The notes beneath the pieces are model-generated. The model had not been told where the DNA came from, searched no databases, and was given only the letters and a program-made list of their open reading frames with translations. This document shows positions 38,434 through 52,903 of a DNA stretch of 64,000 nucleotides, one piece after another (within the stretch, counting starts at the first letter, position 1; every line of letters begins with the position of its first letter). This stretch comes from a virus. A program made the translations under genes and the position numbers. The stretch is from the IMG/VR virus record IMGVR_UViG_3300031787_000011; one strand, 5' to 3'.

Positions 38434-40272
38434 CTAAAACATTACTGGAGTAAACGTAAATGTATTATTTTCTACAGTCTGCTTCATAATATCGTTATAA
38501 CATTTGACGCCCCAATTAGCCAACATAAATGCTGAATAGTTATCTTTTCTGGCTCTTGTAGCAGAAGATCCGCGTTTTAAGTGTTGAGGCAAATCAAAAT
38601 TTTGCATACCTCTAGAAGTAGTAGTATATTCTACCAATGCGCATTGCTTTTTCGTTTGATAAATAAAGTCATCTTGATTTTCAATGAAGTCTAGGTTTGT
38701 CCAATCTGATTTATCGCCAATAAATATTAAATCTTTTGGCAAAGTAGTCCCAATCACGTTGTCAAAGAATTTATCATTAGAACAAACTCTAGAAGCAAAT
38801 AATACTTTTTTATAATCAATACATGCTTGCAAATATTCGTTGCCTTTTCTAATAAAGCTAGAAGTAAATACTTGATTAAATGCTATTCTGCCATCCGATA
38901 AGTTATAACTCATCTTGGCTTTTCTTAATTCGGCTTCTAATTCAGTTCCTTCTGCGTCTGAATTGAATTCTACAGTTTTTATATTTATTTTAGCTGCTTT
39001 GAATATTTCTGATTGATTGCAAGTATCTATAAAAATATCTGCGCCAGCATTATCTAACGTTATACTCACTACGTCAAAGTGAGTCATAATATAACAAAAA
39101 TATTTAACGTGATTATTTAAATTTCCTAATCCAGCATAAGTATGGACCAATATTCCAATGCCGGTTTCTTCGTCCAGCTCCATTACAGCTATGGCAAAAT
39201 AGTCAGCGTTTGGCGAATCGCTCATGTTGGGGTCTATACCGACTATATATTTTTTACCAGGAGTTCCTTTTGCCAAAGTGTGAGGATACTCATCTTTCAA
39301 AGTACACTCTTCCATTTTCTTTGCGCTAAAATAGCTATCAGATCCATCAGTAAATTGCGCACAATATTCTCTAAGGAACGCTGAATGAGAAGTGCCACCA
39401 CTTTGAGCTTCTTCGATAATAGTTTTATCTATCATTTCTGGCGGGAGAGCTTCATACCCTAATTGAGAAACAAAATAAGTAGAATCTTCTTTTTCTGGGG
39501 ATGTGATTTTATTTATCCACTCTTGATACGTCTTATATAAATTTTCAAATGTGTAGCTTGCAGAAGAAAGAGCTATCATTTTAGAATTATTAGTGAAAAC
39601 CATTCGGTCTTCTTCTTTCATTTTGCCTTCCTTGATTAGCAAGTCTTCCATTTCGCGCACATCAATACGTCTTTTCATGTCTTGAGGCGCGACAAGGAAT
39701 GGCATCAATACATTTTTGATAATCTCTTCTGGCAGTAGAAGGAACTCGTCAAGCACAAGAATATTGGCGCGAAAACCGCGAATCTTTTCGCCGCTTAGAG
39801 GAATAGCTCTAATAGATCCACCATTAATATCCCATTCATAAAGATCGTTTCTTTTGCTCTTAGCCCCAAAGGCTTGGAATAATAATTCTGCGCCTTTATT
39901 CTCAGCCATTTTTTCAATATTATTAAATATAGCTCTAGCTGTTCTGAATGTTGGCCCAGCAATAAGAATTTTAGTGTTAGGCTCAAATACACATTGCAAT
40001 ACACAATAGACACTGGCGATAAATGATTTCGCGCAACCACGGCCCCATACGCACATAGAGAAGTTTCTATTGAACATCCCTTTCAAAGTAATCTCTTGGT
40101 AGGCCGAGAGCTTTATTCCTGTTAATAAATATGTAGTGAAGTAAAGATTCTGGCGCAAAAACTTGCACAAAGTGATCTTAGCTTCTTTATCTTCTAGCTC
40201 TCCTTGTAGTTGCCGGAAGATTTCATTATAATTCTCTGTTTCTTTTTTATATTTAGGTGTTTCGTGCCACAT
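38434..40272 (-). CDS. terL: Terminase large subunit
   Basis: YQ adenine motif, Walker A (WGRGCAKS), IRGFRANILVLDE Walker B, coupling SSA, REYCAQF, nuclease VGIDP...D...KDNYSA. Confidence 0.93.
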   Translation of the reverse strand: MWHETPKYKKETENYNEIFRQLQGELEDKEAKITLCKFLRQNLYFTTYLLTGIKLSAYQEITLKGMFNRNFSMCVWGRGCAKSFIASVYCVLQCVFEPNTKILIAGPTFRTARAIFNNIEKMAENKGAELLFQAFGAKSKRNDLYEWDINGGSIRAIPLSGEKIRGFRANILVLDEFLLLPEEIIKNVLMPFLVAPQDMKRRIDVREMEDLLIKEGKMKEEDRMVFTNNSKMIALSSASYTFENLYKTYQEWINKITSPEKEDSTYFVSQLGYEALPPEMIDKTIIEEAQSGGTSHSAFLREYCAQFTDGSDSYFSAKKMEECTLKDEYPHTLAKGTPGKKYIVGIDPNMSDSPNADYFAIAVMELDEETGIGILVHTYAGLGNLNNHVKYFCYIMTHFDVVSITLDNAGADIFIDTCNQSEIFKAAKINIKTVEFNSDAEGTELEAELRKAKMSYNLSDGRIAFNQVFTSSFIRKGNEYLQACIDYKKVLFASRVCSNDKFFDNVIGTTLPKDLIFIGDKSDWTNLDFIENQDDFIYQTKKQCALVEYTTTSRGMQNFDLPQHLKRGSSATRARKDNYSAFMLANWGVKCYNDIMKQTVENNTFTFTPVMF

Positions 40273-44414: not shown

Positions 44415-45113
44415 TTAGAAGGTCCAGCGCAAACCACCAGCACCAACTACCTCGCCGTCCAATTCCTTGCGGGCAAAGTTAAAATTAGCAACATCAAAGT
44501 CATTCTTGATGTAAGTGGCCTCGGCAAATACAGTTAGATGCTCAAATAGAGTCTTGCTGATTCCAATCTTAGCAATAGCATTAGCAGAATCGCTGAGCTT
44601 AATGTACTCCAAAGCAGGAGTAACAGTGAACCAACCAAATACGCTGGTTGGGCGCTCAATGCCGACGCCATATCCATATTGATCTAGATTAATGTCATAT
44701 ACGCCCTTGGCATAAGGAGTAAAGAACTTGTTCTGTAGAGCAACCTTGATATTTGCTTCTGTGGAATTTGGGATATTTGGGTCGCCAGCTTGGTGACGAA
44801 TTACTGAGCCGTCCGTACGCAAGGTCACGCCTTCGAATACTTCAAAGCCCTTTCCTACATTGAAAGCCCAGTGGCTTTCATCGAGATTCTCGCTAACTGG
44901 GAGAATTGTTCCAGACACCCCTACATCAATGCCATAGTATGTTGAACCAAGACCAACTCCTGCAAAAGGAGTAGCCTTAGTACGAGACAAGCCGTTCACA
45001 AGGTACGTTGAGGTGTACCCGGCCTCAAAAGAGGCGCGAACCGGGGCATTTTGGGCAAAGGCCGCTGTAGTTAGTGTTGCAATTAATAGTGCTAGTTTTA
45101 AGAATTTATTCAT
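44415..45113 (-). CDS. Outer-membrane beta-barrel protein (porin-like)
   Basis: Sec signal (MNKFLKLALLIATLTTAAFA), amphipathic beta strands, C-terminal GLRWTF beta-signal. Confidence 0.8.
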   Translation of the reverse strand: MNKFLKLALLIATLTTAAFAQNAPVRASFEAGYTSTYLVNGLSRTKATPFAGVGLGSTYYGIDVGVSGTILPVSENLDESHWAFNVGKGFEVFEGVTLRTDGSVIRHQAGDPNIPNSTEANIKVALQNKFFTPYAKGVYDINLDQYGYGVGIERPTSVFGWFTVTPALEYIKLSDSANAIAKIGISKTLFEHLTVFAEATYIKNDFDVANFNFARKELDGEVVGAGGLRWTF

Positions 45114-45486
45114 AGCATATTATTGTTACACCTATATGAGATTTTGTCAAGAAAAAAAAAGACCCTTAGAGAGAAAAAGCCCCGGGTAGATTTTGTTTTT
45201 GTTATTTTTGTTATGCGGCCTATGGCCTCCCATATAAGTAAATTAAGGATAAATAAAGGATAAAGAGGGGAAGAGTTTTGTTTTTTTTGTTTTGTATCTT
45301 AAAAGACCCATAAGAAAGAAATGCCTCTGGGATTTTTTTATTTTGATTTATTAGAAGAATAAAATTGAAGAGGGGAGAATGAAAAAAGGGCCCCCCCGCG
45401 CGCCCCCAAACGGCCCGGATTGTACCATTTCAAAAAGGGGCTGTCAAGCAAAAAAAGAAAAAAAATTTCGCGCCCAGGCTGCGGAC

Positions 45487-45659
45487 TTGGCACGGTTCTT
45501 GAATCGCGCAAAAGTGGAGGGATTGGCACGGAAATTGACGGGGGAGCTTGGCACGATTTCTGTCGGGCAGGTTCCATGCCAAGGCATCGAATCCGGCCAC
45601 CGCGGACACTTTTCTCGAAGAAAAGTTCACTTTTCGGAAAGTTGGCACACTTTTATTGC
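45487..45659. promoter_or_regulatory. Cluster of five sigma54-type (-24/-12) TGGCAY boxes
   Basis: TGGCACG-N4-TTGA at 45488 and 45524; TGGCACG-N4-CTGT at 45549; minus-strand TGGCATG-N4-CTGC at 45581-45567; TGGCACA at 45643. Confidence 0.5.
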
Positions 45660-45807
45660 CCCGCTGGCGCATTTTGTCCAATTGCAAATCGAGTGCAAAT
45701 GCCAATAAATAACGATAACGTAACCGGGGCCGCTGTAGGGGTAGCGGAAGGCGTTTTCGATTCAAAAGGTAACGATAACGAAAGCATTGCAGCTCTAGGT
45801 ATGTTTT

Positions 45808-46018
45808 GGGGGGGTTGGGGGCAGGCAGGCAGGCGGGGCAGGCAGGCAGGCGGGGCAGGCAGGCAGGCAGGCAGGCAGGCGGGGGCAGGCAGGCGGGGGC
45901 AGGCAGGCGGGGGCAGGCAGGCAGGCAGGCGGGGGCAGGCGGGGGCAGGCAGGCGGGGGCAGGCAGGCAGGCAGGCGGGGGCAGGCGGGGGCAGGCAGGC
46001 AGGCGGGGCAGGGGCAGG
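45808..46018 (+). repeat. G-rich tandem repeat (GGCA)n interrupted by G4-5 runs
   Basis: About 200 bp with no T on the plus strand after 45816. Confidence 0.95.
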
Positions 46019-46023
46019 AAACG

Positions 46024-46052
46024 AAAAGGCCCCCGGCGGGGAGCCGGGGGCC
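46024..46052 (-). terminator. Intrinsic terminator after the small Ala-rich gene
   Basis: GGCCCCCGGC/GCCGGGGGCC stem plus TTTT on the minus strand. Confidence 0.85.
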
Positions 46053-46071
46053 GTGAGCGGGGGCCGGAGGT

Positions 46072-46335
46072 TTAGCCCTTCACCACTTTGAAGCTGTGGA
46101 AGCGGTCTTCCCGCTCCGCGATTGCGGCGACGGGCCGGACGGTGTAGATCGCCGCGACCTCCATCGAGCGGTCGTCGGACTTCAAAAGGACCGACTCGGC
46201 GGGGAGGCCGAGGGCCTCGGCGGCGACCTTGGCGGCCTTGGCGGCGGCGGCGGCAGCGGCGGCGGTGGCCCGCTTTTCCTCCAGCAGGGCGGCGAAGGCG
46301 GAAAGATCGGCGGCGGAAACGGTCTTGGTTTTCAT
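46072..46335 (-). CDS. Small Ala-rich hypothetical protein (87 aa, MKTKTVSAADL)
   Basis: Lies between a promoter/leader repeat and a terminator; GC3-rich codons. Confidence 0.7.
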   Translation of the reverse strand: MKTKTVSAADLSAFAALLEEKRATAAAAAAAAKAAKVAAEALGLPAESVLLKSDDRSMEVAAIYTVRPVAAIAEREDRFHSFKVVKG

Positions 46336-46355
46336 GCTGTAGCTTTTCGGATCGG

Positions 46356-46437
46356 ACAACCGGGAACCCCCCGGCGGGGGCCGGTGGCAACGGCCACCGA
46401 CAGGGACACTCTCCGCGATTGCCGTTCCGTTGTCAAA
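46356..46437 (-). promoter_or_regulatory. Promoter plus double-hairpin leader, copy 1
   Basis: TTGACA-17-GAGAGT, then CGGTGG/CCACCG and CCCCC/GGGGG hairpins; near-identical to 47563-47643. Confidence 0.75.
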
Positions 46438-46446
46438 CCCGAATTG

Positions 46447-46478
46447 AAAAGAAAAGGCCCGGGGTTTCCCCCGGGCTT
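46447..46478 (-). terminator. Intrinsic terminator after the DUF932 operon
   Basis: GCCCGGGG/CCCCGGGC stem plus TTTTCTTTT. Confidence 0.85.
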
Positions 46479-46481
46479 GCT

Positions 46482-46547
46482 TCACTCGTCTGACAGGACC
46501 GCCAGCACCGCCAGCAGCAGGGCCAGCAGCAGGGCCACCGCGATCAT
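46482..46547 (-). CDS. 21-aa hydrophobic micropeptide MIAVALLLALLLAVLAVLSDE
   Basis: ATGA overlap with the DUF932 stop; ends immediately before the terminator. Confidence 0.6.
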   Translation of the reverse strand: MIAVALLLALLLAVLAVLSDE

Positions 46548-47542
46548 GCGACGGTGACCGCCCCCCGGCGAGCATCCGCCAGCGCGTCCGCGCCTTCCGC
46601 CGCCATCCGATCCCATCCGCCCGGGGCCGCGATTGCCGCCGCAAACGCTGACTTGCGGTCAGCGTTGCCCCCGAATTCGGAGGACTGCCACCGGCCAAAC
46701 GCATCCCGACGGGAGGAGGAGCCGACCAGCCCTTGCCCGAAAACCTCGGTGAAACCGTTCAGAACGTCCAACCGGGACGTTCCCGCATTGCCCCGGCCCG
46801 ACCGGAAACCCGCGACCAGATCGTCCAGCAGGTTGCTGGACCGCGCCGACCGCAGATCCGCCCCGTTCCCGGCGAGGTCCGCCGCGTACACCGCCCGGGC
46901 CTTGTCCGCCGTAGCGGGGAGGGCTTCAAGCCCCCGCAGGGTCTCGTTCCAGATCTTCGCCATGCCTACCGTCTCGCCCAGAGCGCCCCGGGAAGCCTCC
47001 AGCCGTCCCGCGAAACCCTTGGTGAGTTTCGAGGAAAACAACGCCCGACCCGCCCGGGCAACCCGGACCGTGTTTGCGCACACGGCGACCGTGTGCGTCA
47101 AATTGAAGGATGGCGATTGGCTCTTGTCCAATCCTCCCGAGGCGGTCAGCTTGAACGCCTCCCCCCGAGGGGCGACCCCGGCCAACTCATCCAAGGAAAA
47201 GGTGACGAACCACCGCGACCTGTCGAAGATCATCCCCAACGATTCCACCCGGTGACCCGTCCCGGCCAGCACCTCTTCGAGGTAGGCCATAGCGTCCCGG
47301 GGAGTGAAAAGGGAATAAGAGGCCCCGAAAGCGGTCCCCACCGGAAGGCCATCGTCCGCCGAGATCGGAACGGCCATCCCGTCCCACTCCCGCAACTGGT
47401 CGCCCACCGTGTAGGTCAGGGGGGCGGCGATGATTTCCGGGAAAGCATCCGCCCCGATCACCGGGAGAATCCGGGTCTGACGGTGCCACGCCTGCTCAAG
47501 CCCGACTTGAAAGTCGCGGCTGGTTTCGAGTCCTGATGACAT
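46544..47542 (-). CDS. DUF932 / phage-plasmid LGT-associated protein
   Basis: AWH motif, VESLG, VAVCANTVRVA, GTSRLDVLNGFTE. Confidence 0.75.
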   Translation of the reverse strand: MSSGLETSRDFQVGLEQAWHRQTRILPVIGADAFPEIIAAPLTYTVGDQLREWDGMAVPISADDGLPVGTAFGASYSLFTPRDAMAYLEEVLAGTGHRVESLGMIFDRSRWFVTFSLDELAGVAPRGEAFKLTASGGLDKSQSPSFNLTHTVAVCANTVRVARAGRALFSSKLTKGFAGRLEASRGALGETVGMAKIWNETLRGLEALPATADKARAVYAADLAGNGADLRSARSSNLLDDLVAGFRSGRGNAGTSRLDVLNGFTEVFGQGLVGSSSRRDAFGRWQSSEFGGNADRKSAFAAAIAAPGGWDRMAAEGADALADARRGAVTVA

Positions 47543-47562
47543 AACTTTGGATTGCTGAACTA

Positions 47563-47643
47563 ACAACCGGGAACCCCCCGGCGGGGGCCGGTGGAACGCC
47601 CACCGACAGGGACACTCTCCGCGATTGCCTTTCCGCCGTCAAA
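47563..47643 (-). promoter_or_regulatory. Promoter plus double-hairpin leader, copy 2
   Basis: TTGACG-17-GAGAGT and the same hairpins with a different loop. Confidence 0.75.
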
Positions 47644-47705
47644 TCTAAATTGCGGGAAATTTCGCCCAGGTATGTTTCAGGGGTAAAACATTGTCCTGGG
47701 CTATC

Positions 47706-47876
47706 GGGGGCCGGGGGGCCAGCGGGGGCCGGGGGGGCCAGCGGGGGCTGGGGGGCCAGCGGGGGCTGGGGGGCCAGCGGGGGCCGGGGGGCCAGCGGGG
47801 GCCGGGGGGCCAGCGGGGGCTGGGGGGCCAGCGGGGGCCGGGGGGCCAGCGGGGGCCGGGGGCGGGGGCGGGGGCG
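47706..47876 (+). repeat. 18-bp G-rich tandem repeat GGGGGCYGGGGGGCCAGC
   Basis: About 8-9 copies visible. Confidence 0.95.
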
Positions 47877-48000
47877 CACTATTTGCCCCTATTTGCACAA
47901 AATTGCACAAACTTCATTCTATTTCCCTTTTTATTATCTAAAACTTGGCAAACAAAAAACCCCTCTATTTCTAGAGAGGCTGGCATTATTTCTTTATTTA

Positions 48001-48141
48001 TTATTTGAAGAAGTAAATTCTTGCAGATAAGAGAAACCCTATTACAAAATAACTTATTGCTATTTCTATTCCTGCGCTCTTGGACAAAATAAAGGAAACA
48101 AAAGAAATCCCAACCATTGCCAAGAAGGAAAGTATTTTCAT
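48001..48141 (-). CDS. 46-aa membrane micro-protein (MKILSFLAMV...)
   Basis: Manual translation; ATGA overlap with the upstream ORF. Confidence 0.5.
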   Translation of the reverse strand: MKILSFLAMVGISFVSFILSKSAGIEIAISYFVIGFLLSARIYFFK

Positions 48142-48266
48142 TTTATTTCTGATGCTAGTAGGTCTAGAGCAAAGATTATTTCATCGAGTATTTCTTTTAT
48201 TTCAGAATTGTCGATGGAGAGCTTGGCTGATTCTAGGTGATCTTGGGCTATTTCAAGAGAGTTCAT
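48138..48266 (-). CDS. 42-aa acidic hypothetical protein (MNSLEIAQD...)
   Basis: Manual translation; fills the gap between neighbours. Confidence 0.5.
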   Translation of the reverse strand: MNSLEIAQDHLESAKLSIDNSEIKEILDEIIFALDLLASEIK

Positions 48267-48269
48267 TTT

Positions 48270-48542
48270 CTAATCAAGATAAGATTTGGCCCACTTTGCG
48301 GCAATTGCGCTTTCAATCAGGAAGAGTTCCTTCTCGTCTGCTCCCAGAATGTCAAGGTGTTCGAGATCCAGTTCGATCCAAGCCAAGATGACTCCCATTG
48401 CAAAGCTGTAAAGGGCAATGCCAGGACATTCTGAACCTGCTGCGGCAAGGATAGCGTCAATGGTCTTCTGGTCCTCCTGCTCAACCATCTTGAGGTTTTC
48501 GAGAAGACGTTTTTTCAATTTATTTTTGTCAGAGGTTGTCAT
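48270..48542 (-). CDS. Hypothetical protein
   Basis: ORF track; start taken at MTTSDK. Confidence 0.55.
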   Translation of the reverse strand: MTTSDKNKLKKRLLENLKMVEQEDQKTIDAILAAAGSECPGIALYSFAMGVILAWIELDLEHLDILGADEKELFLIESAIAAKWAKSYLD

Positions 48543-52816: not shown

Positions 52817-52903
52817 AAAAATGATATTTATTTAGAATCGCGCAAAATTCCCTTATTTACACATTATTTGGCAAAACTGGCACAAAATCGCGCAAAATAG
52901 CAA

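Follow-up and report, generated by a model that had tools for sequence, protein, structure and literature searches.

The DNA analysed here, a window of 64,000 nucleotides, raises the question of what purpose a dense cluster of sigma-54-like promoter boxes serves when it faces no conserved gene. Promoters of sigma-54 (RpoN) follow the consensus YTGGCACGr-N3-TTGCW, and the polymerase carrying this factor normally needs a host ATPase activator to start transcription. To our knowledge, the use of this polymerase by phages is barely documented (phage YuA). In the account of Ceyssens et al. [quoted passage not shown] As far as that account goes, its sigma-54-like sites are single promoters in front of genes with support from a promoter trap, whereas the sites considered here form a cluster without a gene and are known from sequence only.

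The window originates from an uncultured freshwater phage of ~175 kb with ~36% GC. Nearly all genes in the region are encoded on the minus strand, the genes lack Shine-Dalgarno sequences, and canonical sigma-70-type promoters occur in the region. The late and packaging block lies to the left of the boxes and includes the large terminase (38434-40272), an ERCC4 nuclease, a sigma-like protein and PhoH. Also to the left is a 232-aa gene of unassigned family (~44415-45113, minus strand, start at 45113), which has a GTGTAA late motif ahead of its apparently leaderless start. The box cluster itself is non-coding and sits between a divergent sigma-70-type promoter (45419-45447, minus strand) and the first of two G-rich repeats that bracket a GC-rich island, beyond which, further to the right, small early-type genes are found.

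Because the large terminase (TerL) shares only ~23% identity with terminases of Bacillus phages, the host cannot be inferred, and neither the island nor the late region had a nucleotide match among cultured phages. A relative with a complete genome (G001; 174,551 bp, 92% identical to the window) encodes neither a sigma-54 DNA-binding domain nor the AAA+ ATPase domain of a sigma-54 activator. The same genome carries a near-consensus sigma-54 site, CGGCACA-GCCT-TTGCT (GG-N10-GC), on the minus strand at ~71949-71964, 15 nt before a small heat-shock (Hsp20-like) gene, which may be taken as a weak hint that the host has sigma-54.

All five TTGGCA[CT] boxes that the first-pass annotation had reported within 45487-45659 are where it placed them: TTGGCAC starts on the plus strand at 45487, 45523, 45548 and 45642, and TTGGCAT occupies 45576-45582 on the minus strand. 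Box 1 (45487-45502, plus strand) reads TTGGCACG-GTTC-TTGA; its extended -24 element is perfect, the -12 C is replaced by A, and the predicted +1 is at ~45514. Box 2 (45523-45538, plus strand) reads TTGGCACG-GAAA-TTGA with a predicted +1 at ~45550. Box 3 (45548-45563, plus strand; TTGGCACG-ATTT-CTGT) and box 5 (45567-45582, minus strand; TTGGCATG-GAAC-CTGC) are mirror images, with box 3 as the left arm, and form a face-to-face inverted repeat; box 5 points leftward like the late genes and has a predicted +1 at ~45555. Box 4 (45642-45649, plus strand) is TTGGCACA (TGGCACA), has no -12-like TG and is located in the loop of a conserved hairpin. The plus-strand boxes are 36, 25 and 94 bp apart, with 25 becoming 26 in two close relatives (L001 and L163), and this spacing is irregular and without helical phasing.

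Measured against bacterial RpoN promoters, the agreement is strong at -24 and poor at -12. The -24 element TGGCAC with its invariant GG is present in the boxes (TTGGCACG three times, TTGGCACA and TTGGCATG), boxes 1-3 share the exact extended -24 element with RpoN promoters, and a TG is found at the -14/-13 distance in three plus-strand boxes. The earlier reading of the -12 positions was accurate, as four boxes have a YTG at this spacing (TTGA, TTGA, CTGT, CTGC) and only the minus-strand one has the GC. A -12 TTGC element with GC 10 bp after the GG is thus lacking in boxes 1-4, and the full GG-N10-GC is shared with RpoN promoters only by box 5 (CTGC). RpoN promoters keep the -12 C and drive a co-oriented gene, whereas all three tandem boxes (1-3) lack this C and the cluster has no such gene. 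In further contrast to RpoN promoters, the phage has no gene for an enhancer-binding protein, judged by a search for the domain in G001, and no upstream activator sites were identified.

Scoring of consensus sites and comparison with the background density gave a divided answer. Locally, the cluster is far above chance, with five TTGGCAY in 162 bp compared to ~0.07 expected under a Poisson model, while the entire window contains 29 on both strands compared to 21 expected. The exact TTGGCACG occurs three times in the window, always inside the cluster, and in the whole G001 genome TGGCACG-N4-YTG is found only at the three cluster sites. On the genome-wide scale, the density equals that of shuffled sequences, since G001 has 18 sites with at most two mismatches from TGGCACGNNNNTTGCW compared to ~16 in shuffles. 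Therefore, the box density is a local and not a genome-wide property. Matches of a 14-nt pattern search of viral contigs were almost all at chance level, and a metagenome contig scan for three copies of TTGGCACG yielded mainly simple tandem repeats, with L163 and L218 as the only relatives.

The relatives were assigned to four lineages, A (window, L163, L001), B (L007, L008, L218), C (L003, L004, L006) and D (L009, L011, L012, L013). The check for conservation in relatives that had been proposed earlier was informative: the boxes are kept in lineages A and B and missing from C, apart from one TTGGCATG, and from D. Lineages A and B share ~80% genome identity, boxes 1-5 are kept in both, and 31/31 box bases are identical. 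Box 1 and the next 19 nt are 100% identical, and the octamer of box 2 is conserved at 8/8 positions amid flanks of 33% and 56% identity; its TTGA becomes ATGA in lineage B, with TGA kept. In the same lineage, box 4 is TTGGCACG and box 5 is TTGGCATA-GAAC-CTGC, with GG and GC retained. Both lineages have the TG at the sigma-54 distance in three boxes as well as the lack of the -12 C in the tandem boxes. This pattern indicates that the boxes are under purifying selection where present. A sixth TTGGCAT (45699-45705, minus strand), just beyond the range described earlier and outside the alignable region, is not conserved in lineage B, and a 1-nt indel between boxes 2 and 3 sets the window apart from relatives with 89-92% identity.

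Lineage C has a similar architecture, with the promoter, a G-rich repeat of a different unit, a small gene and a DUF932 gene, but a single TTGGCATG. In lineage D, the whole region is replaced by other GC-rich small-gene cassettes without boxes. Since lineages C and D lack the cluster, the boxes are dispensable for the phage group.

The statement that no credible ORF follows the boxes is borne out by the relatives, as the plus-strand ORFs 45379-45708 and 45420-46091 are missing or interrupted in L163, L007 and L218. A coding role of the region was rejected because the plus-strand ORFs over the boxes are not conserved, and with no conserved plus-strand ORF the boxes have no co-oriented gene. Assembled RNA contigs cover the 232-aa gene (44422-45102) in three independent lake metatranscriptomes and the small island gene in one. 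Over 45113-46030 there are none, a count that refers to assembled contigs only and does not amount to an absence of transcription.

The first feature downstream of the plus-strand boxes is a G-rich minisatellite of GGCAGGCAGGCGGG units (45820-46012, plus strand), which forms the left edge of the GC-rich island (45385-47880, ~2.5 kb, 64-73% GC). Related units are present in lineages A and B and another unit in C, and assemblies break there. The island, located to the right of the boxes and bracketed by two G-rich minisatellites, contains two genes, one for a DUF932 protein and a small one, and both have a repeated leader and a terminator of their own. It is still GC-rich (53-73%) in lineages A-C (window 45385-47880; L003:7000-10000) despite the divergence of the DUF932 gene, which has 70.5% nucleotide identity between A and C over a 183-nt stretch. 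In lineage C, one and the same unit makes up both flanking repeats, in opposite orientations. Different GC-rich small-gene cassettes occupy the same spot in lineage D (L012:7600-10000), which makes it a hot spot for accessory DNA. Where AT-rich DNA gives way to GC-rich DNA lies the 21-nt tract GGGCCCCCCCGCGCGCCCCC (45390-45410), one of the non-coding elements most widely retained in lineages A-C and retained in part in D; it is identical in six aligned relatives and L003, differs by one change in L005, and shows no clean terminator fold.

These repeats account for the contig ends found near the cluster. The contig of G001 starts at ~47841 and ends at ~45850 in window coordinates, with both ends inside the two G-rich repeats, and in a DNA run, too, unitigs are interrupted at these repeats as well as at the duplicated leaders. 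However, the window and two independent contigs (L163, L003) continue on both sides of the region. Because these three run straight through, the ends of the relatives in the flanking G-rich repeats are assembly breaks, and the placement at a DNA end is not supported. No terminal pile-up was seen at the boxes in the assembled contigs. A chimera was rejected: in L163 and L003 the island and the boxes are joined on one contig, and the depth over the island (35-46) is similar to that over the flanks (30 and 59).

A comparison with other viruses places the cluster in a wider class. Tandem box arrays, defined as two canonical boxes (TTGGCACG-N4-TTGC) 24-54 bp apart, are widespread among viral contigs but seldom seen in bacterial genomes: they were found in at least 120 IMG/VR contigs, with 139 clusters of 2-10 boxes (GC 0.35-0.65) among the matches listed, and in 596 Gb of bacterial and archaeal genomes the same pattern occurs in 34 stretches, many on short MAG contigs. 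Start-to-start spacings peak at 26, 37-38, 46-48 and 54-57 bp among the matches listed (L274-L393). These values approximate 26 plus multiples of ~10.5 bp, which would put neighbouring boxes on alternating helix faces, and the modal 26 bp corresponds to about one polymerase footprint. The spacings of 36 and 25 bp in the window match the first two peaks. At least two co-oriented boxes with preferred spacing in non-coding phage DNA are therefore present here, and the cluster shares with the viral arrays the co-orientation at 25-36 bp, the location in an early/late non-coding control region and the lack of an own activator. It differs at -12, where the GC is kept in 311 of 318 TGGCACG boxes in and around canonical arrays (98%; among the matches listed) and in 0 of 3 tandem boxes here. 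It also differs in its surroundings, since viral arrays mostly have a co-oriented ORF within 400 nt (104 of 139 clusters with an ORF of at least 50 aa downstream, among the matches listed). Arrays of the C-less form TTGGCACG-N4-TTGAAT do exist in unrelated freshwater phage contigs (L394, L398/L399, L400), in L394 beside canonical boxes. T or G at -12 also occurs, at a low frequency similar to that of A. For this reason, A at -12 as a specially favoured variant was rejected.

The genes behind the arrays are diverse. Among the matches listed, the first downstream ORFs belong to 86 unrelated protein families, and ten downstream proteins that were checked include three small terminases and one each of an integrase, an ArdC-like protein and a sigma/HTH protein. 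Canonical box pairs are located upstream of small-terminase genes in GC-rich viral contigs (L290, L294, L301, L316; L314, L332, L346, L391; L293; PHROG families phrog_57 and phrog_606), at ~30-190 nt in three cases measured, which suggests late or packaging operons driven by sigma-54. One contig, L203, has three canonical boxes with spacings of 39 and 27, and its first box has 21 nt in common with box 1 of the window. The triple box clusters of L203 (7125-7198) and the unrelated L394 (6854-6903) are found where AT-rich DNA (0.27-0.43) changes abruptly to GC-rich DNA (0.48-0.62) and point into the GC-rich genes. On average, DNA downstream of arrays is 2.5% richer in GC (58/85 clusters, Wilcoxon p = 1.7e-5), a rise that may reflect only the difference between intergenic and coding DNA. 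A family of contigs of ~11-12 kb from sample 3300045988 (L317, L401-L425) has TTGGCACGGTTTTTGCTAT/TTGTTAT box arrays at each end, inverted relative to each other, which could represent inverted terminal repeats or an artefact of assembly. Tandem sigma-54 arrays in phages were not described in any paper that the literature searches turned up.

The missing -12 C is critical for the mechanism that the first-pass annotation had favoured, namely a decoy at the DNA end that traps host sigma-54 polymerase in stable closed complexes and thereby serves end protection, DNA pulling or titration. The -12 C is conserved in 96% of sigma-54 promoters and holds basal transcription in check (PMC4551910), and both promoter recognition and the formation of stable closed complexes depend to a major extent on the contact at the -12 site (PMC5095919). 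As the tandem boxes lack this base, a long-lived closed-complex sponge is not what their sequence predicts, and neither a stable closed complex nor a DNA end is supported, the region being internal in three assemblies. In addition, three or four weak sites would make a small sink, and lineages C and D live without the boxes. A decoy would fit the lack of a conserved ORF faced by the boxes, the lack of an activator encoded by the phage (G001 checked) and an array class that is dense, with a modal spacing of 26 bp, and enriched in viruses. Taken together, we regard such a sponge as unlikely. Another parallel is provided by the activator bypass with an altered -12 element described for laboratory mutants of glnAp2 (Wang, Guo and Gralla 1999, as cited in PMC4551910). 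In the description given there, the change likewise affects the -12 C/TGCA, the site restraining basal transcription; those variants were made in the laboratory, whereas the ones described here are natural, conserved candidates.

Iterated sites for a packaging protein had been offered as the alternative, and such sites could be small-terminase sites (pac/cos) or iterons of a replication origin. The location of the cluster just upstream of the packaging and structural block, the A-rich tract beside the boxes, and the tandem boxes that precede small-terminase genes by ~190 nt in two further phage families are compatible with this. Nevertheless, the packaging genes of lineages C and D are 77-80% identical to those of the window at the nucleotide level, yet the cluster is missing there, which argues against an essential packaging or replication site and leaves the packaging-protein alternative unsupported. 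The spacing of 36, 25 and 94 bp is not helically phased, and the GC skew follows the gene strand without a switch at the boxes. A packaging or origin function is therefore considered very improbable.

The elements next to the boxes point to another possibility. The divergent promoter (45419-45447, minus strand) reads TTGACA-N17-TACAAT with a TG extension, directs transcription leftward and is 97% conserved, with TATAAT as its -10 element in L005. An A/T tract (45446-45470) separates it from box 1. The 13-mer GAATCGCGCAAAA (45501-45513, plus strand) overlaps the -12 part of box 1. Exact copies of it (13/12-mer) are also located at 52835-52847 and 52886-52897, upstream of a minus-strand gene start at ~52808, and all three copies of the window are present in G001. 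This motif is probably a regulator site and may belong to a factor different from that of the boxes. The octamers could be iterated operator or activator sites of some other DNA-binding protein of the phage, an island or the host that controls the 45419-45447 promoter or local transcription, with a merely coincidental likeness to sigma-54 sites. Such a role is in line with the position of the boxes 40-230 bp upstream of the conserved promoter with the A/T tract in between, the strict retention of only the 8-mer in boxes 2 and 4, the second repeated motif GAATCGCGCAAAA beside box 1 and in another control region, and the inverted repeat of boxes 3 and 5, as preferred by dimeric binders. What this does not account for is that the octamer is exactly the extended -24 consensus, that a TG follows at the sigma-54 distance in three boxes of both lineages, and that the spacings match those of viral sigma-54 arrays, with TTGGCACG-N4-TTGAAT also being carried by unrelated phages. 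Furthermore, no candidate binder was identified. We consider another binding protein possible, though doubtful.

Structure was also taken into account. Between boxes 3 and 4 lies a conserved non-coding block of ~100 nt (45546-45648, plus strand) with several hairpins, which is 91% identical between lineages A and B compared to 33-64% in the neighbouring spacers. The stem of the box 4 hairpin shows one compensatory change from a G-C to a C-G pair, and the other changes are G-U compatible on the plus strand only. With two lineages and weak fold z-scores of -0.7 and -1.8, this is only a hint that the block may act as a plus-strand RNA, and an Rfam search over 44900-48300 returned nothing credible. 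The boxes as a whole could thus be part of a folded RNA or single-stranded DNA element with TTGGCA and TGCCAA as stem halves, or decaying relics of a once canonical array. The pairing of boxes 3 and 5 as a hairpin, the compensated stem around box 4, the G-U compatible substitutions and the near-complete loss of boxes in lineage C would agree with one or the other. However, boxes 1 and 2 lie outside the stems and are nevertheless perfectly conserved amid diverged flanks, the z-scores are weak, there is no Rfam match, and relics would not remain 31/31 identical. Both explanations are considered improbable.

Weighing this evidence, we propose that the presumed sigma-54 polymerase of the host docks at the boxes, which would be sites of a deregulated, C-less kind and not a closed-complex sponge (probability about 0.5). 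The cluster would then be a lineage-specific C-less variant of the phage tandem sigma-54-box arrays in an early/late non-coding control region. This is supported by octamers that are selected and equal the extended -24 YTGGCACGr, by the TG in three of them, by the array-like spacings, and by the mirror-image box 5, which has the full GG-N10-GC and faces the late genes. Against docking stands the lack of the -12 C in all three tandem boxes, compared to its presence in 311/318 array boxes. G001 encodes neither sigma-54 nor an AAA+ activator domain, and T and G are also found at -12, so that A is not special. The TTGA of box 1 overlaps GAATCGCGCAAAA, which could explain its conservation. The single TTGGCATG in lineage C and the absence of boxes in D show that the boxes are dispensable. 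Of the earlier interpretation, the sigma-54-like sites are supported, as they behave like selected sites and match the array class, while the DNA end, the stable closed complex and the packaging protein are not.

If docking takes place, the three tandem boxes should bind sigma-54 polymerase less stably because they lack the lock of the -12 C, and any initiation from them would be weak and activator-independent. The most concrete mechanism would be a rightward non-coding transcript that runs from the tandem boxes through the conserved hairpin block into the G-rich repeat. The phage might benefit from the RNA itself, from an R-loop, from a disturbance of leftward transcription or from polymerase captured locally. 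A more far-reaching version of this idea, to which we give little credence, is that the C-less boxes evolved in phages as an activator-independent entry for the otherwise locked sigma-54 polymerase, firing into the G-rich repeat to yield a non-coding RNA or an R-loop at the early/late boundary, and that dense arrays give viruses a means of their own, so far undescribed, of using or draining this polymerase.

Should the boxes turn out to bind a different factor, the cluster would be an ordinary regulatory site restricted to its lineage. Otherwise, it offers natural, conserved boxes without the base that enforces activator dependence, and thereby allows testing whether phages make use of sigma-54 initiation without an activator or simply dock the enzyme. 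Since viral contigs often have closely spaced boxes and bacterial genomes seldom do, the arrays suggest that many phages engage sigma-54 polymerase in a way that has not yet been described. Sigma-54 polymerase drives stress responses such as Psp and Rtc, and if arrays indeed use or drain it, they would touch the very polymerase on which these responses run.
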